Assembly: GCA_046563655.1 (NCBI GenBank) | Contig: JAJCTO010000009.1 | Coordinates: 930,001-994,000 of the forward strand | Reading direction: 5' to 3' | Length of the DNA: 64,000 nt | Source: Yuukianura sp. NJ FZ-2021 | Lineage: Eukaryota | Shown: positions 30,216 to 53,654 of the stretch, piece by piece | Numbering within the stretch: position 1 is the first letter of the stretch | How the letters are laid out: every line of letters starts with the position of its first letter | The notes under the pieces: model-generated | Seen by the model: only the letters and a program-made list of their open reading frames with translations | The model's database searches: none | Told to the model about the DNA's origin: nothing | Made by a program: the position numbers and the translations under genes

Positions 30216-30751
30216 ATGGAAACCTTGTCTACATACCATAATTTTAGTTTAAAAAATTTTGAAACACGTTTTCCCAAGGGACATGAAGTCAACGTGTTTT
30301 TACAAAAAAACGTAAAAGTGTTTGTAAAAGAATCTGAAGACGGTGTAGCTGCAGATCTTATTCAAAGAACGCCAACGTTCGCCAGCATTCTTAAAAAGTA
30401 AGTTTTTTTCGAAATTCTAAGGTTAAGTATTTGTGTGAAAACTCAAAAGTTTTGGTTTTACTTATAATGTTTTCTGTTTGATTAAAATTGTTTAGCCCTC
30501 GACATATTAGGAAGCGAGTTCTTAAAATGATGACAGCAATGGGGTGGATTCAGGGTCAAGGAATTGGAGTGAGCGGGAATGGAAGCTGTATATGTTTATT
30601 ATGTTGTAGTTAGGTTGAGCTTATGCTGATATTTTAGTTCATATTTTGAATTTGTAAACAGCAGGTAGATGAGGACTTAAGAAATTTTCAAAACAGGAGG
30701 GGCTTTGGAGCCAAGAAGGAGGAACGTGTGGAATACTACAACTATAATTAG
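30216..30751 (+). CDS. Small spliced gene with a G-patch-like motif (exon structure partly uncertain)
   Basis: Exon 30216-30397 (donor GTAAGT) splices in frame to ..KRVLKMMTAMGWIQGQGIGVSGNG. A downstream segment reads ..NFQNRRGFGAKK. The second splice junction is unresolved. Confidence 0.55.
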
Positions 30752-31234
30752 TTTTTTTCTTCTAATTTGGTTTATATAAAATCCAAGTAGGTCTGGAATT
30801 CTATGTTAATAAATGTACAGTGTTGTTCAGCGAAAAGTAGACAACACAAAATTGTACAATGGTTTTAGTCGAACAAGCTCTGAAAAAAAAATTTCAGGAA
30901 TTATGTGAACTCTAGTTTGTTATTTTTTGTTTTTGTTAAATGTCAAATGAAAGAATTAGTTCCCCCCTTGTTTGTCTTTGTTCTAATCCATCTGTACTTA
31001 CAAGTTTGGATTTTTGTAAGATGTGGAAGAGAAGATGTGGATTTGGAAATGAAGTAATTATTATGAATGTGATCTCTTAACGGTTTTTTTGGAACATTGT
31101 CTTCTGAGTCTCTTTTCTTAACTTTGCATGTAAAGTGAACTACAATGATATTCCATAGGATTCTGGAATCTATAAATCCAATTCAGTTCAACAAGTTAAA
31201 CTTCAATTTAGTTTGAAGTTTTGAGCTAGTAGCA

Positions 31235-32933
31235 ATGCCCGTGGCAATTTGTTCTTTGTGTAACTACTCAATTGTGGACAATAACCCGGCTTTTGTCCAA
31301 GTTGAGGGGGCACATGCTACCGTTTGGGTAACTGAGTGTTACCACGTATTCCACTGGTAAGTTATATTCTTGTAATAAGCTTAATAGAAATTATGTTTTT
31401 ACAACAAAATAATAACAAGTAATATTTATATTTTTTTGCAGGCGATGTCTGATGAAAAAAATAGTTGCGGTCAACAACATTTTGAATGTTGACCGGGAAC
31501 ACCGAAGGTATTAAACTGAGATTGATTTGTACCAGATTAGGTTTATGTGTAATAAATTAAGTGGAGTTGATGAAATTTAAAAAAAAATTTAGCACACCAT
31601 GTCCGTTTCCGGCTCCTGCTCCATCATGCGGTGCCGCAATCTTATCTGTGGGTCACACCATCAACGGATTTCGGATAATGTTGAATTTTGGATATGGGGA
31701 CTATTTGGTGACGGGGTAAATACAAAAATAGGAATTATGTGTAATGTCACAATAATACATTTGTTGACTTCTTTTCTTTTAGTCAAGCTATGAATGCCGT
31801 GACTTCTGCAATGCACTTGACGTGCAGAAGAATTCAAGATCTAATGGCAAAGTTGGATGCGTAAGTTGAAGTCTGGTTACTATTACTCGTAAAAATTTAA
31901 ATTCAACAAATTTTTGTTGGGATATTAGGGAAAGCCAATTAGCTGAGATTACTCGTTTGAAAGCTGATTTGGTTAACTTAAATGGACAGCTTCAAGGGGC
32001 CCACGTTCAGGAGACTCACCTCCGAGAAGAAATTAAAACTGCAATTAGTACCAGGTTACTAAACAAAATTACATTTTCCCTAAATTCTATTAAAACTGTT
32101 GGAGAAAAGAGAATTGTATTTTGTAAATTTTTTAAGGGATGCTCGGATTCTGGAATTAACTAGAAAACACGAGTTGGAGCTTGTGACAATTAAAGCTACA
32201 TTTGCACGATTACTTCAATCAAGGTAAATCTTGCTTTAGTTCAATGCTCATTTTCATAAATTATTACATAACCTAAGGTGGAACTGATTAGTTGATTGAT
32301 TTTTGTTTTAGTAACCTAAGATCGAGTGTGCTGGCCAGTCTGATGAATCAGGGAAACTCTGGGGCAGAGCCGAAACCAACTGCGGCTGAGGCAACAGAAT
32401 TCGGACCAATCACGGTCCCACGTGCTGCTTCCCAGCCGCCATCCCCACCCCCGCCTCCCCTGACTGGTAGGATGATTCTACCTAAGTTGACAGCATGTCC
32501 AAATACGAGTGCTGCCCAAGCCGAGAGGCCACCAGAGCTCGCACAACTACTTACGCTGCCAAATTTGAGCGTACGTCCAGGTTTCAAGCCAGGAGCTTCT
32601 ACGTTCCCACCGATTTATAACAGTGTGAGTTTTGCACACGCTAATTGTGGTCCTAGAGTAAAAAGACCATGGGCTGAAGTCGGTGGGAAGGCTTGGATGT
32701 CCTCGCTTCGTAAGAAGCTGGGGGTGGGTGAGCCAAATTATGAAGCGACACGTCCACCTTCTGCTGCTGCTGGATCTGCTACGGTGGTTGAGAACACCGA
32801 TGATCAGGTTCAGGTTGGGGACGGGAACAAAGAGTTAGTTCCTATGATGTTTCGTTGTACTGACAAGGGTAAGGGAATCCCACCAATCCTAAATAGATAT
32901 GACGAGGGGAGGAGGAAGAGGAGGTTATGGTAA
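31235..32933 (+). CDS. 7-exon RING-H2 finger + coiled-coil + Pro-rich protein (putative E3 ubiquitin ligase)
   Basis: Manually spliced exons 31235-31356, 31442-31507, 31593-31715, 31783-31860, 31929-32054, 32137-32223 and 32312-32933, all GT-AG and in frame. Protein has CSLC...CYHVFHWRC...CPFPAPAPSC, then a heptad-like segment. Confidence 0.85.
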
Positions 32934-33128
32934 TTGATTTTTCAAAGCCACCAGAATAAGTAATTTTTTTTCTTAAATTCTGGGTCTCCTACACCTCATG
33001 TATTGTATAAAAAAAAAGTTGGAAAGAGAATAAATAGTGCTGCTTGTTCAGAATTTTGAACCAAATAAAATTTGTCTTTTTTTTCACTGATTTAGTTTAC
33101 ACTTTCTTTGAACTTTTGGAAAAGAAAA

Positions 33129-33557
33129 ATGAGTTTTGCAGATTTACCATTGGAGGTAGAGTTTTTTTTTTCTTTTAAAATAACAGAATCTAAGTTTTGA
33201 CAAGAAGATACGTTGATTTTTTGATATTTTGTTTGAAGGTATTTGAAGTTATTTTGTCATTTCTGGGAAATGACGACCATAAGACAATGAGGTCTGTTTC
33301 GAGAACATGTCAAGAGGCAATTGATTCTGTCGGGATGTGGACTATGTTTCATCCACATCCGTCCACGGTTGAGTTTTACAAAGACAGGAAAATCAAATTT
33401 CTGCAATTATCTTCAACTGCGGAGCCACTTTTACCACCATTGAAGTATCCGCATCTCGTCAAAAGCATTATGTTTTCAGGTCCAGTGAGCCACGACTGTA
33501 TCAGCGAAGCTTTAGAAAAATGTTCAATGGTAAATTCAGTTAAATTTTTATTTTTAA
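33129..33557 (+). pseudogene. 5' part of an F-box/LRR-like gene, interrupted by piggyBac
   Basis: MSFADLPLE|VFEVILSFLGNDDHKTMRSVSRTC is an F-box motif (intron 33156-33238). The frame runs to the TTAA at 33554-33557 and resumes at 49356. Confidence 0.85.
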
Positions 33558-33829
33558 CCTTTTGAGGCCTGTTGACGACTTTTGTCGCAAAAGTTTTGTT
33601 GTCTGGGAGCCGGTTGTCGACTTTAGTTGCAAAATTTTTCAACCTTGACAACCGGCAGACGACTTTTGTAGAAAGTTTGTTTGCTACTCAGGGCCTGTAG
33701 ACGACTTTTGTCGTTTTTTTTTGCAAGACGTTGGGGACGGTTGACGACTATAGTCGTCAGAAGTTTTCTATTTTCCTCAAATCTTTTTGTGTGATTCATT
33801 CACAGTGATTTTTTTTTTGAGGGAAGGCG

Positions 33830-34377
33830 TGAGGGGTTGCAATGCCCCGACGACTGGCACACTGGCCACTCGAACAATAAAGTGGGATGGTGGGACACAC
33901 ACACACGGCTACAAATGATCAATTGATTTATTAGGACTAATTAGATACAGTTACGGTCTGATTTGGCCAAATGTAGAGTCGTTGTGTTGGTGGGGCGTTG
34001 GTCCAGTGCAGCATCAACCAGGTAATGTCCGGTGGGGCTTGTAGAGGTCAACCTTGGGTCACAATTGTAGATCCGGCGTGGTCCAGTGGCCTATCCAAGA
34101 TGGAGGAGACGTGGAGAGAGAGACGGGACAAGATCCGGGCAGAGTGACGGTTGGAGTTGGACTGTGTGGAGGAAGAAGTGGACAGTGGTGATGATGATGA
34201 TGACGGGATGCGTGTCCAAGTAGATGGATGATGCAACTTCCCGTGCATCTGATTGGTTCTCTGGTGGTTTTGGTGGTGAGGAAGCGGAGGGAAGTTGTTG
34301 TGCTGCTGCTGGAAGGACGAAGGGGGAGAAGAGGGGAGAGGGAACCAAAAGTGGCTATAGTGGGAATAACCCCCACA
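33830..34377 (-). repeat. 3' LTR of the Gypsy element
   Basis: Direct repeat of 44464-45011; only one mismatch seen by eye (GCAGCATC vs GCAGGATC). Minus-strand AATAAA near 33930. Confidence 0.97.
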
Positions 34378-34429
34378 GGTCCCCAACGACCTGGAGACGT
34401 CCCGGCGACATTTGAAGGCGACGTGGGGG

Positions 34430-35650
34430 TTATTTCGGTGGAGCTGGAGGATCACGGCGTTTTGGGGAATTCTTCCTTGGCGGAGGTGGAGCATTGGCCG
34501 AGTTCAATGCCCACCACCGAGCACGTCTCTGCTGCCGATTCGGAGCTGGTGGATTTGGTGGGACAGGGGGAAAACGTCCTTGTACAGGAGCTGGGGGAGC
34601 TGAGGAAGCTGAAGCTGCTGGAGCTGAAACTACTGGAGCTGGAACTCCTGGAGCTGGGGTTAAATTTGAAGTTGGTGGGGAGTTGAAAGTGAAAGTAACC
34701 GAGGTTGCTGAATTTGGGAGAAGAGTGTAGTATGGGAAGTATCCAGGGGGAATTGATGAAAATGGGAATTGTGAAGTTGCAGAAGTGACAGGAACGGTAA
34801 TTGAAGTTGAAGTGGACGGAATTGGTGAAGCTGAAGAAGTGGCTGGAGAAACTGGACGTGAATTTGGAGAAAGTGGCCGAATTTGGGGAGAAGCTGAGCG
34901 ATTTCGGGGTGGAGCTGGACGAGCGTTGTACGGAGAAGGCCGATTGGAACGAAATTGAGCTCGAACAGGGGGAACAGATTTTGACGAAGTGCTGGGTTCT
35001 GGATTTTGGGGGTTTTGAGGGGTTCGTGGGGACAACGAAACATTTGACATTTTGCGTGTCAAAGCTGTAGGGGAGCTGGATCGCGAACGACCAACTGGGG
35101 GGAGTTTTGGGGGTCCATTTGGAAACTGCAAATCCAGAAGCGAAGGAATCTTCGCAGATCCAAGCCGCTGAGCCTGCAGTTTGGATTTTGGGGCTGGGTC
35201 ACGAGGACGACGAAACGTGGCAGAATCTTGGGACTTGGGGGGAACAACCACGACGACCGAAGCAAGTCTTGGGCGTGGCGCTGGAGGAGGAGCCGAAACC
35301 ATGTCCTGGAGTGACTTTTGGGGGGAATTCGGTTGGAAGCTGCTAGAGCTGGGGGAAAACAACTGCCGATTGAGCTTGTCCGGAGATTTTGGAGGGGAAG
35401 CAGCAGCAAGGGGCATGTCCCAGTCGTCATCGGGAATCCGAGCAATGGCGGGCGTAGAAATTGGAGCAGCAATGACGGTAGGAGACGGAGACGACGAAGA
35501 TGACGAAGATGAAGAAGACCGAGAACGAACATCATCAATCGGAGGCGGGGAGTTCAAAAGGTCATCTTCTGCAGCCAAATCGATCTCGGCAATGCCCTCA
35601 GAAGCGTCATCTCCTTCTTCCATCATGTCATCATCGTGAGGGGGGTCCAT
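34430..35650 (-). CDS. Gypsy third ORF in the env position, 406 aa, disordered Ser/Pro-rich, not env-like
   Basis: Intact ATG ORF between pol and the 3' LTR. Acidic N-terminus, basic C-terminus, no signal peptide or TM segment. The ATG directly follows a TTTTTATATATTTTTAG acceptor. Confidence 0.75.
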   Translation of the reverse strand: MDPPHDDDMMEEGDDASEGIAEIDLAAEDDLLNSPPPIDDVRSRSSSSSSSSSSPSPTVIAAPISTPAIARIPDDDWDMPLAAASPPKSPDKLNRQLFSPSSSSFQPNSPQKSLQDMVSAPPPAPRPRLASVVVVVPPKSQDSATFRRPRDPAPKSKLQAQRLGSAKIPSLLDLQFPNGPPKLPPVGRSRSSSPTALTRKMSNVSLSPRTPQNPQNPEPSTSSKSVPPVRAQFRSNRPSPYNARPAPPRNRSASPQIRPLSPNSRPVSPATSSASPIPSTSTSITVPVTSATSQFPFSSIPPGYFPYYTLLPNSATSVTFTFNSPPTSNLTPAPGVPAPVVSAPAASASSAPPAPVQGRFPPVPPNPPAPNRQQRRARWWALNSANAPPPPRKNSPKRRDPPAPPK

Positions 35651-35694
35651 CTAAAAATATATAAAAAGAGCAGCATCAGTATTTAATTACTGAG

Positions 35695-38604
35695 TCAGCG
35701 CTTCTTTGGCTTCGCAAGGCGGGAAATGCAAGACAGAGCTTTAGTGTAAGCCGCGCGTTTCGGACGACTAGAAATCGGGGTTTTTACGCTGGCAGGGGCG
35801 CAAAATACGGGGATTTCACTCGCAACGGGATGCAGGGTATCCTGGGCGGGTAAAATTGGTGGAATTAGGATTTCTGGGTCACGGCTTTGGTTTTGGTCAT
35901 TTAAGTCAACATTAGGGGGGTCAGAATTTTGGTTTGACGCTACGGGAAGCGTAAGAGGGCCATTTTGCTCAGTTGGAATTGGCAATTTTGGTAAGTTAGA
36001 GGGCAAATCAGGGTCAACAACTGGAGGGGGGACAAAATCGTTATCAGACGACTCAGAGGAGCTACTGTCTGCATCAGACCTGTCATAAACACGCTGATTG
36101 TAGGGTTTAAGGCGCTGAACGTTCACGACAGTCTCGTGAGGCTGCCGAGGGGGAACAGAAGTAATTCGAACAGTGCCGTTATGGAGGACGTCTATGACTT
36201 TGTAAGGGCCAATCCATTTCTTCGTAAATTTGCCGACACGACCTTTTTTCCGCTGAAAGTTCCTGAGCAGAACTTTCATACCAACAACGTAAGTCGGGAA
36301 ACGGATCTGTAACTGGGCTCGAACTCTGAGAAGCTGCTGCTCACGGGACAGTTCGTGGGCTAAGTTATTCGCAACAAATAATCGGTCAAGGGCATCGTCA
36401 GGCTCTAAATATTGCTGGTGAAGGGGAAACAGCCTATCTACCGGCAAAACCGGCTCCCTACCAAAGACCAGAAAATAAGGAGAAAAATTAGTGACACGAT
36501 GTACTGAACAATTAATGGAAAATACCGCCCTGGGGAGATGTAGATCCCAATCCTTGTGGTTTTCACTTACGAATTTGGCGATTACTGACTTTACCGTGCC
36601 GTTATGTCTTTCACAGACGCCGTTAGACTTGGGATGATAGGAAGTCGTGGATCTGTGCTCAATGGCGTGGAGGGAAAGGAAATCTTCAAATTCGTCGGAA
36701 AGGAAAACCGTACCACGGTCTGACAGAATGATTTTGGGAATGCCGTGGCGAAACAGGACGTGTTTGTTAAGTACTTTGATCGCTTGAGCAGAATCTGCTG
36801 CGGGAACTGGCCAGGCTTCTACGTAACGGGTATGGAGATTAATTACTGTCAGAATGTACTTGTTACGTCTTGCTGTAACTGGGAATGGGCCTAAGTAGTC
36901 TAGGGCAATGGTGTGGAATGGAATGGCGGGAACGTCAAGACCAGCGCTATTTGGCGGGAGAGCAAAATTCCGTCTATTATGGATCTGACACAAGTGGCAC
37001 GACGTGACAAATTTCACCACATCGCGATACATCCGGGGCCAATAAAACCTGGATCGTAGAAGATGCCAAGACTTGTGTAAGCCGAGGTGGCTAAGGGAGT
37101 CGTTATGTACGGATTCCATTGACGATTTTCGTAGGGATTTCGGGAGACAAAGACGCCAGAGATTGCCAAATTCCGAGTAGTTCATCCGGTACAAAATTCC
37201 ATCTCGCAGACTGTATTCTCGCAATTTCTTGGGTTCAGGCAAATTATGGGAAGCACCAGCTTGTTCTGCTTTCAAATACTCAATTACAGGAAGCCATTCT
37301 GGCTCTTTAAGCTGAAGATCTTTCAGTTTTGCATCTCTAACACTTCGTGGGGATTCCGGGGAAACCGCTAAGGCCAAAAGATGATGTTCAATGGCCAAAT
37401 GGTCTGTGTCAGAGGGGGCTGGGTCAACTGGGTTACGGGAAAGGGGATCAGCATCGGTGTGAACACGACCACTCTTATGAACCACAGTAAAATCATAAGG
37501 TTGGAGGGCTAAAGACCAACGGGAAATTTGGCCATAGGGGTCTTTAAATTTTAGCATGTCACAAAGAGAATGGTGGTCAGTGACAACTTTAAAATGACGG
37601 CCGTATAAATACGGTCGAAATTTTTCCACAGCCCAAACAAAAGCCTTCATTTCCAATTGGGGGGTTCCAAATTTGGATTCGGAGGGGGAAACCGCTCTAG
37701 AAGCATACGCTACCACTCTCTCTTTTCCGTCCTGAATTTGGCAAAGGGTCGCTCCAAAACCGAGCCCAGACGCATCACAATGCACGGACGTTTCGGCTTC
37801 TTCATCGGGGAACGCAAGGACAGGGGGAGATGTTAATTTGTCTTTAAGCGTCTGAAACGCTGTTTCGGCTTCCGGGGTCCAATGGAACGGGGTACCACGC
37901 TTCCCAGCAACAATAAGATGTAGTGGACGGGCAATTTCTGCAAAACCCTCGATAAATCGGCGATAGTAACTGCAAAGACCAATGAAGGAACAGACACCTC
38001 GAACAGTCGTGGGAACGGGGAATTCACGAACTGCTTTTGTTTTGTTGGGGTCAACTGCAATACCATCTCTGGAAACAATATGGCCAAGGAATTTCAGGGA
38101 ATCTTCGCCAAAGTTACACTTTTTGGGTTTAAGACTGAGACCAGCTCGTCTAAGGGCACAAAAAATTTGGGCTAAGTGATCCAAATGCTCTTCAAAAGTT
38201 CGGGAGTAGCAAACCACATCGTCTAAATAAACGAGTGCTATGGACCACTTTAAACGACCTAAGACATTGTCAATTAGGCGTTGCCACGTCGCTGGAGCAT
38301 TTGTTAGACCAAAGGGCATTACAACGAACTCATATTGTCCGTCGGGGGTAACAAAACTGGTCTTTTCTCGGTCCTCAGGTTCTACCTCAACCTGGTAATA
38401 CGCTTGATCACAATCCATGGAGGAAAAATACTTGGCGCCATTAAGTCTGTCTAGGGTATCATCAATTCGGGGGAGGGGGTAAGAATCTTTCCGAGTCACT
38501 GCGTTGACTTTACGAAAGTCAACACAAAACCGCCAACTTTCGGTCGGGCTTTTTGACCAGAAGGACTGGGGAACACCAAGGGCTATCGCTCGGAGTAATA
38601 GCAT
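35695..38604 (-). CDS. pol: Pol: reverse transcriptase, RNase H, integrase
   Basis: WRFCVDFRKVN, MPFGLTNAP, YLDD; HCDASG...TDH; H-H-C-C zinc finger, DYLGP, SDRG, NGVCERHNG, WIGPYKV. Confidence 0.97.
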   Translation of the reverse strand: MLLLRAIALGVPQSFWSKSPTESWRFCVDFRKVNAVTRKDSYPLPRIDDTLDRLNGAKYFSSMDCDQAYYQVEVEPEDREKTSFVTPDGQYEFVVMPFGLTNAPATWQRLIDNVLGRLKWSIALVYLDDVVCYSRTFEEHLDHLAQIFCALRRAGLSLKPKKCNFGEDSLKFLGHIVSRDGIAVDPNKTKAVREFPVPTTVRGVCSFIGLCSYYRRFIEGFAEIARPLHLIVAGKRGTPFHWTPEAETAFQTLKDKLTSPPVLAFPDEEAETSVHCDASGLGFGATLCQIQDGKERVVAYASRAVSPSESKFGTPQLEMKAFVWAVEKFRPYLYGRHFKVVTDHHSLCDMLKFKDPYGQISRWSLALQPYDFTVVHKSGRVHTDADPLSRNPVDPAPSDTDHLAIEHHLLALAVSPESPRSVRDAKLKDLQLKEPEWLPVIEYLKAEQAGASHNLPEPKKLREYSLRDGILYRMNYSEFGNLWRLCLPKSLRKSSMESVHNDSLSHLGLHKSWHLLRSRFYWPRMYRDVVKFVTSCHLCQIHNRRNFALPPNSAGLDVPAIPFHTIALDYLGPFPVTARRNKYILTVINLHTRYVEAWPVPAADSAQAIKVLNKHVLFRHGIPKIILSDRGTVFLSDEFEDFLSLHAIEHRSTTSYHPKSNGVCERHNGTVKSVIAKFVSENHKDWDLHLPRAVFSINCSVHRVTNFSPYFLVFGREPVLPVDRLFPLHQQYLEPDDALDRLFVANNLAHELSREQQLLRVRAQLQIRFPTYVVGMKVLLRNFQRKKGRVGKFTKKWIGPYKVIDVLHNGTVRITSVPPRQPHETVVNVQRLKPYNQRVYDRSDADSSSSESSDNDFVPPPVVDPDLPSNLPKLPIPTEQNGPLTLPVASNQNSDPPNVDLNDQNQSRDPEILIPPILPAQDTLHPVASEIPVFCAPASVKTPISSRPKRAAYTKALSCISRLAKPKKR

Positions 38605-39997
38605 TGAGATTCAAAAGACGCTCGACTTGGTTTTGAATTTCCCTCCGCTCAGTAAATCCAGTTCTGTGGGGATGGGAAGCAATCGGTTTAGCAGAACCTG
38701 TGTCGATTTTGTGGGTGGTTAGGTGAGTACGGCCAAGGGTAGCGGGATCAAAATTGAAAACATCCAAATTCGCTACAAGAAAATCTTGCATGATTTGGCG
38801 CTGTTCAGGGGTTAGGGAATTTGAAATTTGGAACGCCTCGATCCTCTTTTGCAGTTTCAGGGTTGCTATTTCAGCGTCATCATTAACCGAAAGTCCTAAG
38901 ATCTCGTGCGCTGGGAGGGAAGATTGGGAGGATTTAGAGCTAACATGGTCGAATTCATCAAGGTCACAGAGTACCGAAGACTCTGCGAAGGGTTCGAAGG
39001 TGCCAATAGAGACATTTTGAAGAAGTTTCACAGGCCGGTCACTCAAATTCCACAAGAACGTAACTCCACAGCCATCTTTAAGCGTAGAAATGGAATTCCC
39101 AATGGCAATATGCTTTGCGTGTTGGAGCTCACGACGAGGGGAAACCAAAATGTCACCTGTGAAAGGTAAATCAGTTTTTACACTGACTCGCTTCATTGTT
39201 CTTGGGTTGATGACAATTGACCTGGCCAGTCTCAGGCACGGAGCGGGAGTAGAATTTTGAGATAAATTCGAATTGCTCACGAAGGACGCTTCGGAGTCAA
39301 GTAGGGAAGGGGAAGTTGAAGTATTTTGGGACTGGGATGAATTCAAAGCCATGTCATTAGCTAGAGTATTTGGAATTTTGGGAATGGCCGTACATTTAGG
39401 AGGGATCGACTCTGGTTCTGCTTCCGAAGACTTTGGAATACTGGGGCTATCAGAAACTTCTTCAGTTTCTGACAAAGTTAATTTGTTAAGGACAGGGACT
39501 TGGGATTTTGGAATACAAACATACTCATTTCTGAGGTCTGTACACGGGAGTTCACCTTTTACAAGGCGCTCATTCGCGGGATCCAAAAGAAAATGTTGGG
39601 AACGGAGGAAATCTGAGCCCAAAACGATCTCATTTGAAAGATGCTGGAAAATGTAAAATGGGTATTGGAAGGAGACGCCAGCAATTGAGAAAGTGATCAT
39701 TGTAGTTTGGGGGGAACCACAACGAACGTAAGAACCAAAAGAAAGTTTGACACGAACAGGTTGAACATCAACCGCTTGGGAAACAATATTTGGGAATCTC
39801 CTTAGAAAATCAGGGTGGACACAACAAAGAGAAGCACCTGTATCGCACAGGACTCGAAGAGTCGTAGAACCAAAGACAACATCGGTATGGAAAGTGGAGG
39901 GGGGTGGAGTCAATTCCAGAAATGAACTTTGCAGCTGAGATTCCCGAAGGAAACTCGGAATCATGACTTGGGGACTTGGGTGGGGGTTCAAAATCAA
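38519..39997 (-). CDS. pol: Pol N-terminal part: aspartic protease, spacer, start of RT (frameshifted on both sides)
   Basis: LCDTGAS active site and IVLGSDFL. SDSPWCSPVLLVKKPD joins the next ORF after a 1-nt insertion near 38540. Confidence 0.92.
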   Translation of the reverse strand: MILNPHPSPQVMIPSFLRESQLQSSFLELTPPPSTFHTDVVFGSTTLRVLCDTGASLCCVHPDFLRRFPNIVSQAVDVQPVRVKLSFGSYVRCGSPQTTMITFSIAGVSFQYPFYIFQHLSNEIVLGSDFLRSQHFLLDPANERLVKGELPCTDLRNEYVCIPKSQVPVLNKLTLSETEEVSDSPSIPKSSEAEPESIPPKCTAIPKIPNTLANDMALNSSQSQNTSTSPSLLDSEASFVSNSNLSQNSTPAPCLRLARSIVINPRTMKRVSVKTDLPFTGDILVSPRRELQHAKHIAIGNSISTLKDGCGVTFLWNLSDRPVKLLQNVSIGTFEPFAESSVLCDLDEFDHVSSKSSQSSLPAHEILGLSVNDDAEIATLKLQKRIEAFQISNSLTPEQRQIMQDFLVANLDVFNFDPATLGRTHLTTHKIDTGSAKPIASHPHRTGFTERREIQNQVERLLNLNAITPSDSPWCSPVLLVKKPDRKLAVLC

Positions 39998-40664
39998 AAG
40001 TAGTGGGATCTGGAAATTTGGAATTTGCAGCTGAGAGTTCAGGAGCCGAATAATTTACCCAGTCAGCGACTCGGCTTGCATTGGAGGGGCTAATGCCAAA
40101 TTTGGAAGTGAGAGAAACGGCTAGTGGGTTTAGTTGAGTAGGGCCACACACAAATTCAGAAGGGCAAGGTTCGGAAGGGCCAACACAAACAGAAACAAAC
40201 TTTGGTACTGCAGCAGTAGGTTGAGTAGGGGGAAGAACAGAAGTAGTAGTAGCGGCGGTTGTAGTTGTAGTTGTAGGTCCCAGAAGGGAAGTAGGGTGAG
40301 TAGCGGCGGAAGTACGAAGAGAAGTAGGGACTGTAGGGACTGCAGCGTCAGAACAAAAGTTTGGGAAAGTTGTAGTAACCTCCCCAACGACCAAAGGTGA
40401 AATAGGCTGGGTGTTTGATTTTGGACAAGTTCGGTGGTGGTCAAAAAGAGCTTGTAGTTTGGAAAGAAACTCTTCTGGAATAATGGGAATTTTAGAATTG
40501 TGCTTCCTGCCAAAAGCTGAACAATTCTTGTGGGTTTGGAATTTAGGTTGTTTGATTTTTCGGGATTTGGGACGTATTGGACAAACCCTGGGTGGGGCTT
40601 GTACCTTAATTTGAGAAACTGGATTGGGTGGTGAATAGAAGCTGACGTCCCTGCAACGGCAGCT
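39810..40664 (-). CDS. Open frame continuing in phase after the gag stop (Pro/Thr/Ser-rich gag-protease linker)
   Basis: No stop for about 285 codons after the gag TAG. It overlaps the protease frame across a G6/C6 run near 39900. Confidence 0.6.
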   Translation of the reverse strand, partial: SCRCRDVSFYSPPNPVSQIKVQAPPRVCPIRPKSRKIKQPKFQTHKNCSAFGRKHNSKIPIIPEEFLSKLQALFDHHRTCPKSNTQPISPLVVGEVTTTFPNFCSDAAVPTVPTSLRTSAATHPTSLLGPTTTTTTAATTTSVLPPTQPTAAVPKFVSVCVGPSEPCPSEFVCGPTQLNPLAVSLTSKFGISPSNASRVADWVNYSAPELSAANSKFPDPTTFDFEPPPKSPSHDSEFPSGISAAKFISGIDSTPLHFPYRCCLWFYDSSSPVRYRCFSLLCPP

Positions 40665-42062: not shown

Positions 42063-42147
42063 TTTTGGGAATTCTTATAGACGGCGTCTCGGATCAACAC
42101 GGGGTTCGGTTTCAAACACTAACCAGCCTTGGGCATTGGCAAAAGCT

Positions 42148-42489
42148 TTAAACAACCACCGGATAAATGGGACCGAAGAAATCCCAGTGGTAGTAGAGGA
42201 TTCGTACAATTAGGGCTAGGAAGTAGTAAGTCTCGGTTCCAATGAGGACCCGGAAGAAGTAACGATAAGTTCTCGGGGCTTGTCGTAGGTAGAAGACTGG
42301 GATAATGTGGAGGGCGATATAGTCAGAAACAACCGAAAATGTCGCTATGAGACAGGAATAAGTAATGTGGGAGAGGAATGTTGCGATGAGATATACAGTT
42401 TCAAGGACCAAAAGGATGAAGCAGATTCCAAAGAATGCTGCTAAGCCGAGAAATACGACTGTCTTTAGAAAGGACCAAAAAATTTGCAT
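42148..42489 (-). CDS. Small hydrophobic ORF upstream of gag (possible membrane protein)
   Basis: ATG at 42489, about 113 aa with 2-3 hydrophobic stretches. T-rich strand composition could produce this by chance. Confidence 0.35.
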   Translation of the reverse strand: MQIFWSFLKTVVFLGLAAFFGICFILLVLETVYLIATFLSHITYSCLIATFSVVSDYIALHIIPVFYLRQAPRTYRYFFRVLIGTETYYFLALIVRILYYHWDFFGPIYPVVV

Positions 42490-42835
42490 TTGCAGGGACT
42501 TCAAAATAACTTAAATGCTTTTCAGCACTTAAGCTTTACTCAAGAAAATGTAGGAGAAGGGATACCAAAAAGAAAACGACAATCCGTTGGACAATGACAC
42601 CAATCGTAGCAATGACAACGATCAAGACAATGTAGAGGAATGGGAGAGTACATCGTCTGTTTTCTGGGCTGGGCAGGGACTTTCTAGAAATACTTGAAAT
42701 AAATGGAATTATTAAATAGATAATGAATATGAATATTAATATTTATAACCTTAAATCTAGAAAAAAGAAAGAAATGGGAATTGGAAAATAAATATGGTAT
42801 GTGGAGTTAGCTACTGTCTAGTGGCTAGGATTTCA

Positions 42836-42935
42836 NNNNNNNNNNNNNNNNNNNNNNNNNNNNNNNNNNNNNNNNNNNNNNNNNNNNNNNNNNNNNNNNN
42901 NNNNNNNNNNNNNNNNNNNNNNNNNNNNNNNNNNN
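42836..42935. other. Assembly gap (100 N)
   Basis: N run flanked on both sides by the same 18-mer CTAGTGGCTAGGATTTCA. Confidence 0.99.
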
Positions 42936-44443
42936 CTAGTGGCTAGGATTTCAAAAAGAAATCAAATTCCTCCAAAACAGAACTTTAGAAGAAATAAGGA
43001 AACAATCGGACAAGAAGAACGAGAAAAACGAGTCTTACGCCAACCGATGCAATGCCAAACCACATCAAGAAACCGACGAGCCAAAGAAACCACTCAATAA
43101 TTTGCATTACTGAGCTTAATTTGCAGAAAAAGAACCGAAAAATTGGAATGGGAACTTCAATAGGGGAGGGCACGACGTAAAATCGCGTTATCTGAAGAAT
43201 CGGCGAAGTCAGGGGATTAGGTAGTACCTACTCACACACTGACTAAAAGTACACCGACTTAGAAAGTTTTAAGTTTTTAGAATTTTGGGAAAATCGGGCA
43301 GGGGTTTGGGACGAAAAGCCGCTTTGAATTTTTGAAGTTTGGACCAAAATCTGAATTTAATTAATGTAAAGTTACAACGTAACGTAATTTAGGAATTAGG
43401 AATAGTTTTTAGCCAAATTCTGAAAAATCCGACTATTCAGGGGAAGAGAGGGTATCGCAGCAACGTACGACTTGCAAAATCAGAGGAATCGGCTGACTCT
43501 GGGGATTAGGTTAGGTGGGGGGGTGAACAAATTTCGGAATTTTGCTAAGTGTCTGTATTCAAGGAAAATTTGGCCAGAGTTCCGTTAAGGGGTAAGGGAA
43601 ATGTGAATTAGGTAACGTTGTTCAATGGTGGGACTATTTGGGGCAGGCTCAATTCAAAAAAAAATTTTTTTGAAAACCGAAAAATTTCAAACTACTTTAA
43701 TTTTAGAAAAAATTTTGACAGGGGTTGGGTAGGAGTAGACGTTTTTTGAATTTAGGTTATGTTTCAAAAATTTTCAGACCAAAATTTCAGAAGGGAGGGA
43801 AAGGGGAATAGCCTCTTGACCTTTGCAGGGAAGACTGGGGTACTTTAGTTTAGGTGGGGCGTTACGCTTTTTGAAAAAGAGAATTTAAATTTGGTGGAAA
43901 CGACTCAGTTTTTGAAAATTTGAAAAATTTTGAACAGGGGGACGTTAGGATTTTTGAATTTGAAATTTACGCGGGGCCGCTACTTTTCGTTAAAAAAAAC
44001 GCTCGCGCAGAGGGAGGGGGGATAACCAAAAGAAAACGGCTGACCTTTGTGACCTTGCCTCAATCGGTCAGTGACTGCACGGAGGAGGCAGAACTGAAGA
44101 AAAGACGAGATGACGTGGAGGCAGGAAGTGATGAGTTGGAGCGTGGACTTGGAGCGCGGAGATGTAGAGTGGGTGTGACGTGGCGGTTGTGGCTTTCGTC
44201 AGCTCCTCGTGGGCTTTTTGGATGACGATGGCTCGTGGCTCGTGGCTACTGGCGGGTTGGTGGCTCGCTCCAGAAATGATCTGAAAAAAATCGATGCAAA
44301 ATTAGCATGATTTTAAAACAAATATTTTTTTCAAATTTTGCTATTTTAAAAAAAATTTTTATTAGTTTTTGGAGAGGTCACGGGGGTCACAGGGCTCCTA
44401 GTGGCACGATTCAGCTTTGGTTGTGAGGTCACGGTGGCTCGTT

Positions 44444-44461
44444 TCCCGTCTGAGCATCCCA
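44444..44461 (-). promoter_or_regulatory. Candidate primer-binding site
   Basis: TGGGATGCTCAGACGGGA starts 2 nt inside the 5' LTR end. The cognate tRNA is not identified. Confidence 0.6.
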
Positions 44462-44463
44462 CC

Positions 44464-45011
44464 TGAGGGGTTGCAATGCCCCGACGACTGGCACACTGGC
44501 CACTCGAACAATAAAGTGGGATGGTGGGACACACACACACGGCTACAAATGATCAATTGATTTATTAGGACTAATTAGATACAGTTACGGTCTGATTTGG
44601 CCAAATGTAGAGTCGTTGTGTTGGTGGGGCGTTGGTCCAGTGCAGGATCAACCAGGTAATGTCCGGTGGGGCTTGTAGAGGTCAACCTTGGGTCACAATT
44701 GTAGATCCGGCGTGGTCCAGTGGCCTATCCAAGATGGAGGAGACGTGGAGAGAGAGACGGGACAAGATCCGGGCAGAGTGACGGTTGGAGTTGGACTGTG
44801 TGGAGGAAGAAGTGGACAGTGGTGATGATGATGATGACGGGATGCGTGTCCAAGTAGATGGATGATGCAACTTCCCGTGCATCTGATTGGTTCTCTGGTG
44901 GTTTTGGTGGTGAGGAAGCGGAGGGAAGTTGTTGTGCTGCTGCTGGAAGGACGAAGGGGGAGAAGAGGGGAGAGGGAACCAAAAGTGGCTATAGTGGGAA
45001 TAACCCCCACA
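44464..45011 (-). repeat. 5' LTR of the Gypsy element
   Basis: 548-bp direct repeat of 33830-34377. Confidence 0.97.
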
Positions 45012-45130
45012 GGCGGCTAGTTTGAAACTCAAATATTTCGGAGTTCTTTGTTTATTCTATGTGAAGATAAGTTGAGTTCCCGTTTCTAGAAAAAAGCTAA
45101 TTGGTGAATTGCTAATTACTGGAATTGGAA

Positions 45131-48100
45131 ATGGATTCAGGTTATCGTTTTTGAATCAAATATACAACAAACGTCAATTCATTCGATATTAACAGACATA
45201 TCTGTACACAGGATCTGACTCTGATATTCAGAACTCTACTGATGAAAATCAAGTGGAAGACTCAGACACTGATTCTGCTATTGAAGGCAGTAGCAGTGAT
45301 GACGGAGACTCTAGTGACCTTGACACAACTAGTGAAGATGAAGATGTCCCCCCGTCTCCTCCAGATTCAGCTGATGGGAACCCTCCGGAGGTTGGTTTAG
45401 CATTTCCAATTTTGAAACCTTTCGCCTAAACACATCTTACTACTTTAGGACGTTGTCTCTCCAGCAAGTCGAGTCCGAAAGCGACGAAGTGCTCCGATAC
45501 AGTTGCCATTACCAAGACCTGTAGCAAGACCAGTAACTCAAAATGGCATTTCTCGATTGCCAGAAGGGTGGGAAGTGGGAGAGGACTTTGACCCGAACGT
45601 ACGCCAATTTGACCCACCTCTTGAGAAATTCCACGCAGACTTTGCCGTTGACAACACTATGACTCCTTACGAAATCCTGAAACTGTTTTGGGAAGACGAT
45701 ATTGTGCAAGAAATTTGCACTGAGACAAACCGTTATGCCAACTTGAAGTTGCAACGCAATCCGAGAACTCTAAACCGATGGAAGGCAATTGATGTGTCAG
45801 ATTTCTGGAAGATGATGGCCCTCTCAACACTTATGGGTGTTGTAAAGAAACCAACATACAAATCGTACTGGACAAAGGAGAAGCTGCTGGAAACTCCATT
45901 TTTCTCTACCGTGATGTCCCGAGACAGGTAGCAGTACTGTTCATATTAGTTGGTTGCTAGTAGTATTATCTATATAGAATAGGCTGTTCACTAGTTTGGA
46001 GTAGCAGAGGGGTGCGCCCGCTTGCAAAAAAGGGGCGCGAGATAGGGTGCGGCATAATTAACTTTTTGATAAAAAAATGCAAAAGTGAAAAATAATTGAA
46101 TATTGTTAAAGATCAATACTTTCAATAATATATTTAATTAATTTTAATTATTATTTGAATAATTAATATGAAAAATTTGTTTTTTATGCTTTTTTTAGTT
46201 TTACGTTATATAAACAAATAGTTAAGTAAAAAATGTTAATCACGTGCAATAAGGTAATATAATTAATAAATTTTAATTAATTAATTAATAATTAACATAA
46301 AAAATTGAGGTTACTGGATTTTTGGTTTCAATTAGTAAAAGTAACTACACTGGGGACCCGATTTAGCCAACAAACCGTGATTGGAGGAGGGGAAGTTTAC
46401 GCCTCCCCTAGTACCGTAAGGTTTCCAGTAGGGTTAGGTTCGCACTTCGGAAAATACGGATTATTATATTGGACATTGAAAATACATTATAAAAAATAAT
46501 TGTTTTCATATATTATAGTTTAATTTATATATTAGGTATTATTAATAATTATAATACCATTATTTAATATATATAATTAATTTATAATAATTCACTTATT
46601 AATATAAGTATTAGTATTGGTTATATATATATATACAGTGAGCGCCAGCTAAAACCATACACCCCTATTTTGTTTCCGTAGAAACGAGTTGAAAATTAGG
46701 TAAACATGGCGGGAAACGTAACTCAGAATGTGAATTCAGTTAAATTCTTATGGCGAAATTTTTGCAAATCGCGTAATTTCACATGTTTTCCCTCCACAGT
46801 TGCAAAATTAAACAATTATGGGTGTATGGTTTTAGCTGGCGCTCACTGTATAATCTAATATTCTAATATATATATATAATTATAATCATAATAAATTATT
46901 ATATATTAATTATATAATTATTATTATAATTATAATTATACATAATAAATATAAAATTAATTATTTTATTATTTATTTTTATTCAGAATTTATATTTGTA
47001 ATATCAAACCTATGGTTTATAAAAAAAATATTAATAAAATATATGGATATGTTGAATATCCAATAATAATTCCCGAAGTTTCGAACATACGTTGCAAGTA
47101 AGGTTTGTTTACAAATGGACACATACGTTCCCTCCAAAATTTAAATCCTACGGTAACCCGCCTTCGAGTGAAGATGAGAAAGAGGAGGAGCGACTTGATG
47201 GCTAAATCGGTACCCTAGTGTAGTTAAGTAACAGTTGTTCAGAACAAGCAATAATATGATTAATTAGTTGTAGTTAGTAATTATACAATTAATATTATAC
47301 CAAATTGTTGCCGATTTTTTCGCTTTTTTTTTGCTGTAAAAAAATCGAGTAACCTCAATTTTTTAAGTTAATTATTAATTAATTAATGAAAATTTATTAA
47401 TTATACATATTACATTATTGCACGTGATTAACATTTTTTACTTAACTCCTTGTTTATATAACGTCAAACTAAAAAAAGCACAAGAAAGAAATTTTTCATA
47501 TTAATTATTCAAATATTAATTAAAATTAATTAATTACATTATTGAAAGTATTGATTTTCAACAACATTCATTTATTTTTCGCTTTTGCAATTTTTTTTAC
47601 CAAATTTAAATTAATTATGCCGCACCCTACGCCGCGCCCCTTTTGTGCACGCGGGCGCACTCCTTCTACTCCAAACTAGTGAACAACCTATCCTATATAG
47701 ATAGTAGTTAGTGCGCATGGGCAGATCGATTCTGTAGTGGTTAGTTGTTAGTACTAGTTAGTGCGCATGCGCAGATCGATTCTGTAGTGGTTACTAGTTA
47801 GTGCGCATGGTCAGATCAAGTGTAGTTGCTGTTCTGTCTAACCTCTAATTTCTATTGCGCAGGTACCTTCAGATACTCAGTTCTTTGCACTTTGTGGACC
47901 AAACCACTATTCCTCCGAATAACCGAGACAGACTTGCAAAATTTGGAAACGTCATGACCCACATCCTACAGAAATTCGAATCGTTCGTAAACGCAGGAGA
48001 GTTCTTAACAATTGATGAGTCACTGATGCCGTATAAAGGACGCCTCTCATTCAAGCAGTATGTCCCGACTAAAAGAGCGCGGTTTGGCATTAAGTTTTCC

Positions 48101-49090
48101 ATCATGGTTGACTGCGAAACTAAAGCTGTGATCAAGATCATCCCGTATCAAGGGAGAGGAACTGTGTCTGTTGCCGACGCGAGGCGGTACGGAGTGGGAG
48201 GAGCCATTGTCGTGTCACTACTTCAGAATTACTTGCATCTGCGTCATCGAATTGTCGCTGACAATTGGTTCAGCAGTGCAGAACTGGCACAGTACTTGCT
48301 AAATAGGGAGACGTATTACTTGGGGACAATTCAGAAGCGAAGATGTGGCGACATCAAAAAGGCGATGACCTCAAAGCTAAAGAAGGGTGACGTGAAGGCA
48401 TTCACAAAAAATGAAATTCTGATTGAAAGGTTTGTTTTGCTATAATACACATTTTTAGATACATTACATTAACTTTTTTTTATATTTCTTAGATGGTCGG
48501 ACCGAAGAGAGGTTTGCATGATCAATACGTTTGTAAAACATGAAATGCTGCCATCACCATCTCAAAATCTGAGAAACGCGAGGCTAAAACCTGCGTCTGT
48601 ACTTTTGTACAACTCAAAAATGGGAGGCGTGGATGACGTTGACCAAATTATGAAGCCTGTGCAGAGTATCAGAAAGACGCTAAAATGGTATCGGAAAGCA
48701 TTTTTTCACTTGTGGGACTACTCAATTTTCAACAGTCATCGTGCGTACAAAATGTTACATCCCAACTCAAAAACGCGTTACAAGGACTTCGTAGAGGCGG
48801 TCATAAAGGAAATCTGCGAGGAATTTCCTTCAGTGCCAGTCAGGAGAGGCAGACAATCAATCTTGATCTCAACAGAAGTTAGATTGTTGGGAAATCATTT
48901 CCCTAACCAAGCTCATAATGCAGGAGGAAAACCGAAAAAAAATCGTTGCACCTTTTGCAAACTGCGGGGAGTGCGAAGGACCACTACATTTCAGTGCGTT
49001 CAGTGTCAAGAATTCTTGTGCATCACTGGTGTGAAGTCATGTTTTGAGTTTTACCACACGATGCGAAGGCTACCTGGAGGTAAAAAATGA
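45131..49090 (+). CDS. piggyBac transposase, 5 exons, apparently intact
   Basis: Exons 45131-45140, 45212-45390, 45449-45927, 47863-48429 and 48493-49090 splice in frame (MSRDR|YLQIL, ER|WSDRREV). Catalytic triad IDES / ADNWF / GGVDDVDQ and a C-terminal Cys-rich domain. Confidence 0.92.
45967..47703. mobile_element. Foldback-type non-autonomous element (diverged palindromic arms) in transposase intron 3
   Basis: GTTCACTAGTTTGGAGTAG pairs with CTACTCCAAACTAGTGAAC. Arm complementarity continues inward (e.g. CCGATTTAGCCA / TGGCTAAATCGG). Exact ends and target duplication are uncertain. Confidence 0.85.
46636..46848. mobile_element. Tc1/mariner-type MITE, 213 bp
   Basis: Perfect 29-bp TIR CAGTGAGCGCCAGCTAAAACCATACACCC with TA on both sides. 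Confidence 0.93.
47705..47818. repeat. Short tandem repeat, 3 copies of TAGTTAGTGCGCATG..CAGATC
   Basis: Directly visible 38-50 bp units. Confidence 0.85.
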
Positions 49091-49355
49091 TGGGTTGAAA
49101 AGTGTTTTAGGTATTGTCTATCGTCACGGAATTATAATTTATAACTTTTTAGTTATGCTACTAGGCTTTTCGGAAAATAAAATGTTCAGAATTATGTTTT
49201 TCCAAATTCAGGCTCCTGTCACTCTTTTCTAAATTTTAAATTAATCCTGCGCAACCGAATCAAAAAATTATTCTGGTTCAACCGTGGAAACCAAGGTAAT
49301 TTATGGTCGTCTCCTAAATAAACAATCTCTCGCGTAAACAGGCCTCAAAAGGTTA

Positions 49356-50537
49356 ATGTTTGTTGAAGAGTTGGGTGAGGAGATTTTAGACCGAATGTGC
49401 TTTGGTTTAAATAAGTTGACTAGTTTAGAATTCAACTCTAACTTTATTGATACAAGCAACCGCAACCAACTTGTAGGTGTAGGTGGACCTGTTGCTAGAT
49501 TTCTGGGTAAAAGTATTTGTTTTCCAAATCTTAAACGTTTTTCCATTTGCCACCCGTTTTCTGAAAAATGTGTTCGCAACTTTTTTGAGTTTATTATTAA
49601 TAATCGTTTGACTTTAGTAACAATTGAGGTTGATTGTGAACCACCACCATTTTACTGTCCCCCATGTAACTTTACCGGTACAATTAGTTGTCGTTTTCCA
49701 AATTTGAAAAATATTTCTGTAGTATGTGCCCCTCTATATTATTTTCATCCAACTATGGTGTCATTGTGGTGGAACATTTGTAGAATTCCAAATTCATTTG
49801 AAACTATTAGAATAGAATTAGACGTAATTAGTTTAAATCGGTTAAGTACTATTGTATCTAGGAGTCTAGCTACTTTGAAGGTGTTAAACCTGAGTAATAT
49901 TTCAATTACTCCGAGGGGACCATTTAGAATTTTGGAACTCTCTCAAATGATAAATTTGAGGGAGTTGACCTTGGAAGTATTACCACATGTACATACTAGG
50001 TTTAGATTAGGTGAATGTGGGTCTGAACCATATGATCGGATAACATTTAAGCCCACACTTCCAGAATCTCTTCAGTTTCTGGAATTAAAAGGTTGTAGTA
50101 TTGCTAGAAGGGATTTAATGCAAACTCTTTCAGCACTTAAGTATTTGTACTATTTAAAATTAGATCGAATTGGAAGTCCAATTGATTTCAACTGTGGAAT
50201 TGATCATGAAGTATTAATTCATATACTAACAGAAGTGGAAGAGCTGAAGGTGTTGTTAATTTCTGGAGTAAGTCAACGGACAAGGGAAAGTTACCTAGTT
50301 GATAAAGAATGCTGGAAGCGCGTCTTATGCTGTTCACGGAGGCTAGGAATTTGGCATGATATTGAAGATATGGAGGAGGGTCGGATGGGATCAGAAGTTC
50401 TGAACGGATTTCAACTGGAATTTGAATTTAAAAATAATTTGGTAAAACAAAATTTCATTTCTGAATTGTTAGGTATTGAAAGCGATTATCATCAAAGTTT
50501 TAATCCACTTCCACATGTACCAAACGATGAATATTGA
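49356..50537 (+). pseudogene. 3' part (leucine-rich-repeat-like) of the piggyBac-split F-box gene
   Basis: LxxLxL motifs (FPNLKRFSI, LATLKVLNLSN, INLRELTL, ESLQFLEL). In frame with the 33129 part once the piggyBac is removed. Confidence 0.85.
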
Positions 50538-50731
50538 TTGAATAAATGTATAACTAAAAGTTTCTAGAAGTTTCTGTTGCAAGAAAAAAAATAGTATTCT
50601 TTGGAAGTGGGGGAAGGGGGGAGTGGGGTGAGGCTGGAGAAGCGATTTTAGTATAAAAGGAGGAAGTTTTGTTCACAAAGCTCATCATTCTGCTCTCGAC
50701 ACTTTCTGCTTTTAGAATCAACAGTTAAACC

Positions 50732-51161
50732 ATGGCTCAGGCACCACCCAATACACCTGAACTACCTTCAGGAGGTAAGAGAAAATAACTAATTTGAAAC
50801 TTTTGTTAAGTTTATAATAGTTTATTTTTCTAAAAAAGGAGAAGAAAAGGAAAATGTTGCTGCAGGAGGTGGTGAAGAGATTGAAGATTTGACTGTGTGG
50901 GATGATGAGGAGAGGAAATTAAACTTGTGGAGTCGTGAGGTCATGTACCGTGGAACTCCATTTACTTGGGTATACATGAAACGGCTTGGAAAGACAACAA
51001 ATTTTGAAGTACGAAACATTCCGTACGTCATGCGTCGTCTCAACAACATTTATCTGCGTTCAAACAGAGGTGAGGTTACTAAATTGGCAGAGTGCCTTCA
51101 AAATTGTTTGAACGAGATGGAAGCTTTTCGTGCAGAGCTTGTTGGAATCCCACATGACTAA
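50732..51161 (+). CDS. Small two-exon hypothetical protein
   Basis: TATAAAAGG near 50653, ATG at 50732, GTAAGA donor at 50775, in-frame second exon, downstream AATAAA. Confidence 0.7.
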
Positions 51162-53136: not shown

Positions 53137-53257
53137 TTTTTTTGTTTTGTTTTTTTTTCAAAAAATATATCTAATTTTTTTGACTTTATATTCTTCTTCT
53201 TATTTCTCTTGACTCTTCTCTTTTTCTGGGGTCTGGGGTTATTACGAGCTACACGTT

Positions 53258-53641: not shown

Positions 53642-53654
53642 TTTTTAAAAAATC

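Follow-up and report, generated by a model that had tools for sequence, protein, structure and literature searches.

Accessory genes have been described in several Mavericks (polintoviruses) and related elements. Nematode Mavericks carry intron-containing protease and kinase cargo (wasp/krma) near the left repeat (Widen et al., 10.1101/2022.07.12.499685). Adintoviruses and animal polintons carry Oncoid, IAP, and Bcl2 accessory genes (Starrett et al., PMC8502044). Predicted E3 ligases are present in 61 protist polinton-like viruses and were proposed to counter host defence (Bellas and Sommaruga, PMC7805220). Vertebrate Mavericks have accessory regions, with no introns in intact elements (Barreat and Katzourakis, PMC8097293), and introners occur in dinoflagellate polinton-like elements (PMC11957031). 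The G-patch of Mason-Pfizer monkey virus recruits DHX15 (PMC11459146). These accounts, and the comparisons drawn from them below, refer to parts of the papers only (abstracts and main-text passages). The subject here is a cassette of four predicted spliced genes within a Maverick of Yuukianura sp. NJ FZ-2021 (assembly GCA_046563655.1, 98.7 Mb in total). The window, meaning the whole stretch of 64,000 nucleotides that was analysed, is G000:C9:930001-994000, and positions given without a contig are positions in this window.

The cassette lies between the left end of the Maverick and its protease gene. It is composed of four plus-strand genes starting at positions 30216, 31235, 33129, and 50732, with the final stop at 51161. 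In this order, they encode a small G-patch protein, a RING-H2-like protein, an F-box/leucine-rich-repeat (LRR) protein, and a conserved orphan protein (gene 4). The genes contain two, six, one, and one predicted introns, respectively, and all 10 are GT-AG introns of 64-98 nucleotides with a GC content of 17-27%. With nested elements set aside, the intergenic gaps are 482, 196, and 195 nucleotides, followed by 180 nucleotides to the converging protease gene. On the minus strand, the protease gene and those for the capsid and minor capsid each form a single open reading frame (ORF). This layout of packed, co-oriented spliced genes converging on an intronless structural module had been described in an earlier note on this DNA, and the four genes do lie at the place it gives. 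The note also held most of the genes to be invisible among the ORFs. That is fully so for the G-patch gene only; the other three appear as partial ORFs of 122-399 amino acids. The splice-site/open-frame search applied here over-extends genes to spurious last exons and produces artefact models on frameshifted copies.

The left terminal inverted repeat (29371..29463, plus strand) starts with AGTAGT and matches the right end (G000:C9:1001477-1001569) at 98% over 93 nucleotides. The Maverick spans 42.2 kb between these 93-nucleotide inverted repeats, with AGTAGT...ACTACT ends present and the right end at C9:1001569. It is inserted in an array of a 543-bp satellite that fills the window from position 1 to approximately 29370. 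A sister copy in inverted orientation, 97-99% identical, is located at approximately C9:1010020-1036409. A 6-bp target duplication is not present around the window copy alone but can be recovered from swapped flanks. The same 6-mer is found at the right end of the window copy and the left end of the inverted sister, where it splits one BEL/Pao reading frame, and the remaining two ends run on into satellite. We infer that the two copies are independent insertions whose flanks were exchanged by inversion, although the swapped flanks may instead be an assembly artefact. With both ends found and the cargo between the terminal repeats, the placement of the genes inside a Maverick, as first proposed in the earlier note, is firm, and the cargo genes belong to the element. 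Several Maverick copies, located on different contigs, have this satellite at their flanks (window 1-29370; L012, L015, L052), and it may be a place where insertions are favoured or tolerated. The two Maverick ends also resemble a long, old, diverged inverted repeat (approximately 70% identity over 600 nucleotides, in one copy).

Across the genome, there are 22 matches to the LRR in 17 loci, 21 matches to gene 4, nine to RING exon 1, and 93 to the capsid. Linkage was counted within this one genome, at a distance of 6 kb, using 29 of the 93 capsid matches (the closer families). A capsid gene lies within 6 kb of 16 of the 17 F-box/LRR loci, and the seventeenth is accompanied by RING and G-patch paralogues. 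For gene 4, a capsid gene lies within 6 kb of 17 of the 21 loci; three of the other four are beside protease remnants and the fourth is beside a RING paralogue. One RING locus stands alone within 10 kb. Paralogues are thus consistently linked to Maverick core genes, which was the check that the earlier note put forward, and the genes are multi-copy beside capsids rather than single-copy and absent from other Mavericks. Capsid genes accompany them on six contigs. Three Maverick families have the cassette, with capsids 59-100% identical and with intron positions conserved. The order RING, F-box/LRR, gene 4, and converging protease is shared by six copies from a family at 63-67% capsid identity and by one copy at 61%. 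None of the four genes was found in any of the six 10-kb stretches whose neighbouring capsid is 55% identical or less.

The predicted splice sites are retained among related copies. In five other copies of the window family, 28 of 30 RING donors and 29 of 30 RING acceptors are kept. Of the sister copies, 5 of 5 also have the F-box intron and 4 of 4 have that of gene 4; all these counts come from related copies and are hence non-independent. The interiors of the RING introns are 44-55% identical in four diverged copies. The RING alignment contains 6 of the 13 search models and was trimmed after the last conserved intron. Within it, intron 1 falls in the same alignment column in all six models across families. 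Intron 2 precedes the seventh ligand by two residues in each of the three families, and the 66- and 78-nucleotide exons recur in two families.

Ratios of nonsynonymous to synonymous substitution (dN/dS) were calculated by the Nei-Gojobori method. In the window family, the cargo values are 0.16 for the F-box piece, 0.12 and 0.19 for the LRR, 0.04 for gene 4, and 0.11 for the RING gene, and the core values are 0.08 for the capsid, 0.10 for the protease, and 0.11 for the integrase; the RING and G-patch ratios are rough, as their synonymous distance is saturated. In a second family, the values are 0.11 (RING), 0.18 (LRR), 0.04 (gene 4), and 0.05 (capsid). One close LRR pair has a ratio of 0.31. 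Judged by these ratios, the cargo is under purifying selection near the level of the core genes. FastTree topologies of the capsid and LRR agree for seven copies, and the rank correlation between capsid and LRR identity is 0.85 over 21 non-independent pairs. The cargo has been inherited with the capsid for a long time and is not a recent pick-up. Between the same families, the window RING (31235-32933) and G-patch genes are saturated in synonymous distance relative to the copy on G000:C8, while the F-box, gene 4, and core genes are at only 0.3-0.7. This difference suggests that left-end modules may have been exchanged between Maverick lineages.

Gene 1, the small G-patch protein gene (30216..30753, plus strand), has three exons, at 30216-30397, at 30496-30587, and after tandem acceptors near 30661-30664. 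Its intron phases are 2 and 0 in sister copies. The G-patch motif matches PF01585 above the cut-off (E 8.9e-7), as it does in the paralogues at the left and right ends. Relative to the sister copies, the window copy is frameshifted in exon 2, inside the motif. G-patch proteins bind and stimulate DEAH RNA helicases. The description of the cargo as belonging to the ubiquitin system applies to only two of the four genes (F-box and RING): the motif of gene 1 is that of RNA-helicase cofactors, and gene 4 is without assignment. Several copies have another spliced G-patch paralogue near the right end (L019:5210-5840, L016, L070, L011), in which the 100-nucleotide middle exon and the phases are the same.

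Gene 2 (31235..32933, plus strand) has an open frame of 407 amino acids with a RING-H2-like N-terminus, a probable helical or coiled middle, and a proline-rich tail. Its exons are located at 31235-31356, 31442-31507, 31593-31715, 31783-31860, 31929-32054, 32137-32223, and 32312-32933. The seven-exon model was recovered by the splice-site/open-frame search with a score of 31.6 and 1224 coding nucleotides, a score reached by none of 100 local shuffles (maximum 12.0). All six introns are in phase 2, which has a chance of 0.4% under uniform phases and permits the gain or loss of exons without a change of frame. The candidate zinc ligands in the window are C6, C9, C35, H37, H40, C43, C66, and C75, with the last pair spaced by 8 rather than 2; the spacing is canonical in two other families. 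Profile searches, which the earlier note had suggested for the three named domains, place the G-patch and the F-box above their Pfam cut-offs, but the window RING exon 1 stays below (E 0.002-0.006). RING exon 1 of a divergent family copy clears two RING cut-offs. Other transposons of this genome also have RING cargo, an example being a small element bounded by inverted repeats with a spliced RING-H2 gene (L099, G000:C5:5.859-5.862 Mb, with a twin at C7:6.688 Mb).

Gene 3 is in two pieces on the plus strand. The 5' piece with the F-box (33129..33557) consists of exon 1 (33129-33155), a phase-0 intron (33156-33238) that splits the F-box motif, and the start of exon 2. The motif matches PF00646 just above the cut-off (E 3.5e-4). 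The same match is above the cut-off in 3 of 6 family ORFs scanned, and the other three ORFs begin downstream of part or all of the motif. F-box proteins dock on Skp1-Cullin1, and the LRR picks the substrate. The 3' piece (49353..50537) encodes the LRR solenoid, which was modelled by AlphaFold2 with a pLDDT of 76.5 and a pTM of 0.79. The window LRR itself matches Pfam below the cut-off (E 0.004). A Foldseek search with the model returned 15 PDB matches at E<=0.001; the matches listed all contain LRRs and include COI1, TIR1, D3, SKP2, FBXL17, and NLRs. Two atlas clusters named as F-box proteins score 0.90-0.91 for a member of the F-box/LRR family.

Gene 4 (50732..51161, plus strand) encodes a conserved 121-amino-acid orphan in an open frame, with exons at 50732-50774 and 50839-51161 and a phase-1 intron. 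No match was found in Pfam or the structure atlas, no clear fold match was found, and there was no viral match at E<=0.001. The word-indexed protein search returned one relative (P0001, E 5e-9). The structural model is of low confidence (pLDDT 55), with three strands and two helices, and its best VIA Z of 6.2 (root-mean-square deviation 3.9, 82 aligned) is to an unrelated ribosomal chain. A resemblance to PC4-like single-strand binding proteins was considered but not adopted, with no PC4 among the best 50 VIA rows. In the family with 59-61% capsid identity, an intronless ORF between the F-box/LRR and protease genes (L051:6363-6944, L052:7214-7795) shows a weak likeness to gene 4 (hhalign probability 34%).

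The origin of the cargo was approached through relatives and intron positions. The word-indexed protein search returned no relatives for the LRR, used alone or as an alignment. A full profile search returned 24 proteins, many of them long F-box/LRR exons. Through one of these proteins, a single F-box/LRR relative outside Mavericks was located in the genome, next to a Dicer-like gene (C3:12.417 Mb). Its first exon has nine codons, and its phase-0 intron is at the same place, following the P-x-E of the F-box. In a quick tree of 21 rows, eight Maverick proteins and P0002 fall on one side of a branch (SH-aLRT 95), with the host gene apart. The intron inside the G-patch is common to 2 of 7 host loci viewed, which were chosen for truncated matches. 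Because these introns match those of host genes, the F-box and G-patch genes were likely captured as genomic DNA, although the shared positions may instead be common intron sites. No host donor for the RING gene was found among 25 loci viewed of 89 matches. The 10 cargo introns show no mutual similarity at E<=0.01 and so give no sign of a single intron-generating element. Scans of viral contigs with the capsid, gene 4, and LRR found nothing. One metagenome match (L074, 33 residues) was rejected, as it appears to be on a bacterial contig.

Taken together, it is very probable that the cassette is element-borne and functional. On balance, we regard it as a lineage-specific accessory module of an animal Maverick (polintovirus). 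Granted that it is element-borne and functional, a host-directed ubiquitin mechanism is probable. The earlier note had suggested an early host-modulation region, which the cassette may be. Under such a mechanism, an ancestral element would have acquired its F-box/LRR and RING-H2 genes and a set of G-patch exons from genomic DNA, introns included, and the host spliceosome would process the cargo transcripts in the nucleus. The F-box/LRR protein would dock on the host Skp1-Cullin1, with its LRR solenoid sending a host protein to degradation. The RING protein could act as an E3 ligase or imitate one, and the G-patch protein could engage a host DEAH RNA helicase. The likeliest purpose would be the removal of a host silencing or antiviral factor, allowing the element to be expressed and copied. 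A fuller version of this proposal is a spliced multi-gene counter-defence region, in which an SCF (Skp1-Cullin1-F-box) adaptor and a RING ligase destroy the host silencing or antiviral factor, the G-patch protein activates a spliceosomal helicase, and the introns are kept as a working feature (symmetrical phase-2 exons, spliced polymerase leader). This fuller version is tentative and carries a distinctly lower probability.

Several observations weigh against an accessory module directed at the host. The cassette is modular: one close copy is without the RING gene, two copies at 59% capsid identity have the F-box/LRR gene without RING or gene 4, and three have gene 4 only. The G-patch gene was seen only in the window family, where it occurs at both ends, and the linkage to Mavericks rests on one genome. 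Support for a coiled-coil in gene 2 is weak, with 54% versus 42% hydrophobic residues at heptad positions. Canonical RING ligases, in which the RING recruits the E2, use a helix tryptophan and a basic residue after the last cysteine. The window-family RING has neither. With these two typical ligase residues missing and the 8-residue last spacing, it may be a weak ligase or a decoy. The saturation of the RING and G-patch distances also counts here. With regard to the introns, 25 other RING loci were viewed, of which one shares RING intron 2 and none shares RING intron 1. The polymerase of a sister copy has a spliced leader with a zinc-finger exon and three introns of 53-72 nucleotides (L019:6711-7400), so splicing is not peculiar to the cargo. 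Since this leader is spliced and the RING introns are nearly unmatched, some introns may have been gained within the Maverick lineage.

The rival explanations differ in what the genes would act upon, if anything. The polymerase leader also fits a module that serves the element's own cycle, in which the ligases would time the turnover of element proteins and the G-patch protein would aid the splicing or export of the element's own intron-bearing transcripts. The G-patch paralogues of identical exon structure at both ends and the selection close to that on core genes point in the same direction. However, this genome also has Maverick families that lack the cassette, as seen in all six stretches beside distant capsids, and the content varies between close copies as that of accessory genes would, which makes this explanation unlikely. 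Alternatively, the F-box and RING proteins could be decoys or selfish germ-line effectors that titrate Skp1 or E2, or act in the way of toxin-antidote systems, as the nematode Maverick cargo does, with no specific target. The non-canonical RING of the window family would suit such a role, and cargo-derived toxins have a precedent in nematodes, according to the parts of the source considered here (10.1101/2022.07.12.499685). A simple Skp1 sponge would not need the whole LRR solenoid, which is conserved (dN/dS 0.12-0.19), and the RING is canonical in other families; we consider this role rather unlikely.

The two remaining explanations deny the genes either a function or a place in the element. 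Many copies are decayed and some introns are common to host genes, as would be expected of neutral passengers, that is, host fragments recently acquired and functionless. Such fragments are very improbable given dN/dS far below 1 in two families, splice sites conserved though the introns diverged, and retention of the genes while LRR identity dropped to 21-31%. The earlier note had allowed that these might be ordinary host genes at an insertion or capture junction, and the host-type domains, the introns, and the existence of a host relative of the F-box/LRR gene are in keeping with that. This is barely credible and was rejected: the cargo lies inside the terminal repeats and recurs beside capsids on six contigs, and the tree places the host relative apart from the Maverick proteins.

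How animal Mavericks handle host defences is an open question, and their accessory genes have mostly been read by ORF finders that miss spliced genes. In the reading as a host-directed accessory module, the recognisable F-box, RING, and G-patch domains provide handles, and the substrate of the F-box protein would name a host factor that restricts Mavericks. The locus would also be a case in which a self-replicating DNA element took up host genes, introns included, and maintained their function. If the fuller counter-defence version is true, Mavericks would be viruses of the nucleus with an early region for control of the host, similar to that of adenoviruses, which intron-blind annotation has overlooked across invertebrates.

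The remainder of the element contains the core genes. The structural module (51341..54539, minus strand) is composed of the ORFs for the protease (51341-51805), major capsid (51799-53157), a small basic protein (53258-53644), and minor capsid (53655-54539). The protease (adenovirus-type), capsid (double jelly-roll), and minor capsid are presumably these proteins, the names being taken from motifs and gene order. None of the four structural-module proteins has a Pfam match, and the capsid, minor capsid, and protease have no PHROG assignment either. The protease has no relevant PDB sequence match, and a relative that is 33% identical matches the adenovirus endoprotease family PF00770 weakly, below the cut-off (E 0.0015). 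A block of 25/50-nucleotide repeats (54622-54791) is located 3' of a core gene and is nearly unchanged at L052:4880-5200, beside the terminal repeat of a divergent family. The retrovirus-like integrase (56454..57527, plus strand) matches PF00665 (E 1.2e-14). The ATPase, polymerase, and right end are located past the window, at G000:C9:994040-1001569. A piece of the protein-primed family B polymerase (G000:C9:995955-998126) matches PF03175 (E 7e-9), and this gene is in pieces in the window copy. The packaging ATPase ORF of the sister copy matches AAA above the cut-off and Adeno_IVa2 and Pox_A32 below it. The corresponding frame of the window element is 91% identical to the sister ORF and has one stop. 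The window copy is decayed, because the F-box gene is interrupted, the G-patch gene is frameshifted, the ATPase has a stop, and the polymerase is in pieces. In other copies, some one-base shifts in homopolymer runs may be assembly errors.

Gene 3 is interrupted by one of several elements nested in the Maverick. A piggyBac-type transposon (33558..49352, plus strand) with a TTAA duplication is inserted in a coding exon of gene 3. It matches PF13843, its spliced transposase pieces lie at 45449-49090, and all five of the sister copies viewed are without it here. Inside it is a Ty3/Gypsy retrotransposon (33830..45011, minus strand) with 548-bp long terminal repeats that are 99.8% identical and an assembly gap of Ns near 42837-42936. 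The terminal repeats differ at one of 548 bases, so the nesting is recent. This retrotransposon contains an extra ORF of 406 amino acids rich in proline and serine. An AT-rich inverted-repeat element (45964..47706) with inverted arms is located in an intron of the piggyBac transposase. A mini-element with long inverted repeats (58165..64000; also L013, G000:C9:1017470-1023390) is nested in the Maverick just past the 3' end of the ATPase gene. It has inverted arms of approximately 1.5 kb and a divergent capsid-like gene that is approximately 25% identical to the capsid gene of the surrounding Maverick. It is at the same site in both C9 copies and was therefore copied along with the Maverick. 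Elsewhere in the genome, IAP-type genes (BIR, and BIR with RING) are found in a distant Maverick family (L063:5682-6260) and in mobile-element debris beside RING paralogues (L083:4723-5139, at G000:C9:390-407 kb). A matrix-metalloprotease-like ORF (L060:4736-6061; Matrixin, E 3e-43) lies beside a retrotransposon gag gene in a broken Maverick copy.

No F-box or G-patch cargo of animal Mavericks was found in the literature as covered by titles, the starts of abstracts, and main-text passages; supplements, such as the genome maps of PMC8502044, may bear on this. The parts of PMC11296320, 10.1101/2024.01.15.575659, PMC11131425, 10.64898/2026.10.13.758929, PMC6431247, and 10.1101/2023.08.22.554363 covered in this way contain nothing on such cargo. 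Gene 3 resembles host FBXL-type SCF adaptors (SKP2, FBXL17, TIR1/COI1) and giant-virus F-box/LRR proteins in having an N-terminal F-box and an LRR solenoid. Its likeness to these is at the level of the fold only (10-17% identity, query TM-score <=0.49), so that no orthology or substrate can be assigned.

Among mobile elements, the closest parallel is the nematode Mavericks, which, as described in the passages considered, likewise have intron-containing cargo near the left terminal repeat, an intronless core, and ubiquitin-like domains in the cargo. Their cargo, a protease or kinase, is found in a region of low conservation and belongs to families that are linked to Mavericks in part (47 of 235 and 121 of 532), whereas the cassette here is stable, almost wholly linked, and encodes ligase-type domains. 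They also differ in showing horizontal transfer, while the present cassette is known from the copies of one genome alone. Adintoviruses have the same core genes, and their accessory genes are likewise seen as modulating the host; an IAP-type gene is also present in another Maverick of this genome; RING and splicing terms are absent from the main text on adintoviruses, although its supplementary maps could hold such labels. The main text on vertebrate Mavericks (PMC8097293) contains no ubiquitin, RING, or F-box term. Polinton-like viruses share E3 ligase genes with the present cassette but are environmental viruses of protists; introns are absent from the main text describing them, and the passage on the ligases names no F-box adaptor or G-patch gene. 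In Mason-Pfizer monkey virus, a virus-borne G-patch motif likewise serves as a helicase cofactor, but there it is part of a retroviral polyprotein and concerned with RNA packaging, whereas the present DNA element has it as a spliced gene in its own right. Spliced Maverick cargo and viral E3 genes are thus each precedented, and what is new is a spliced cassette of several genes that is stable, under selection, and provided with ligase-type domains.

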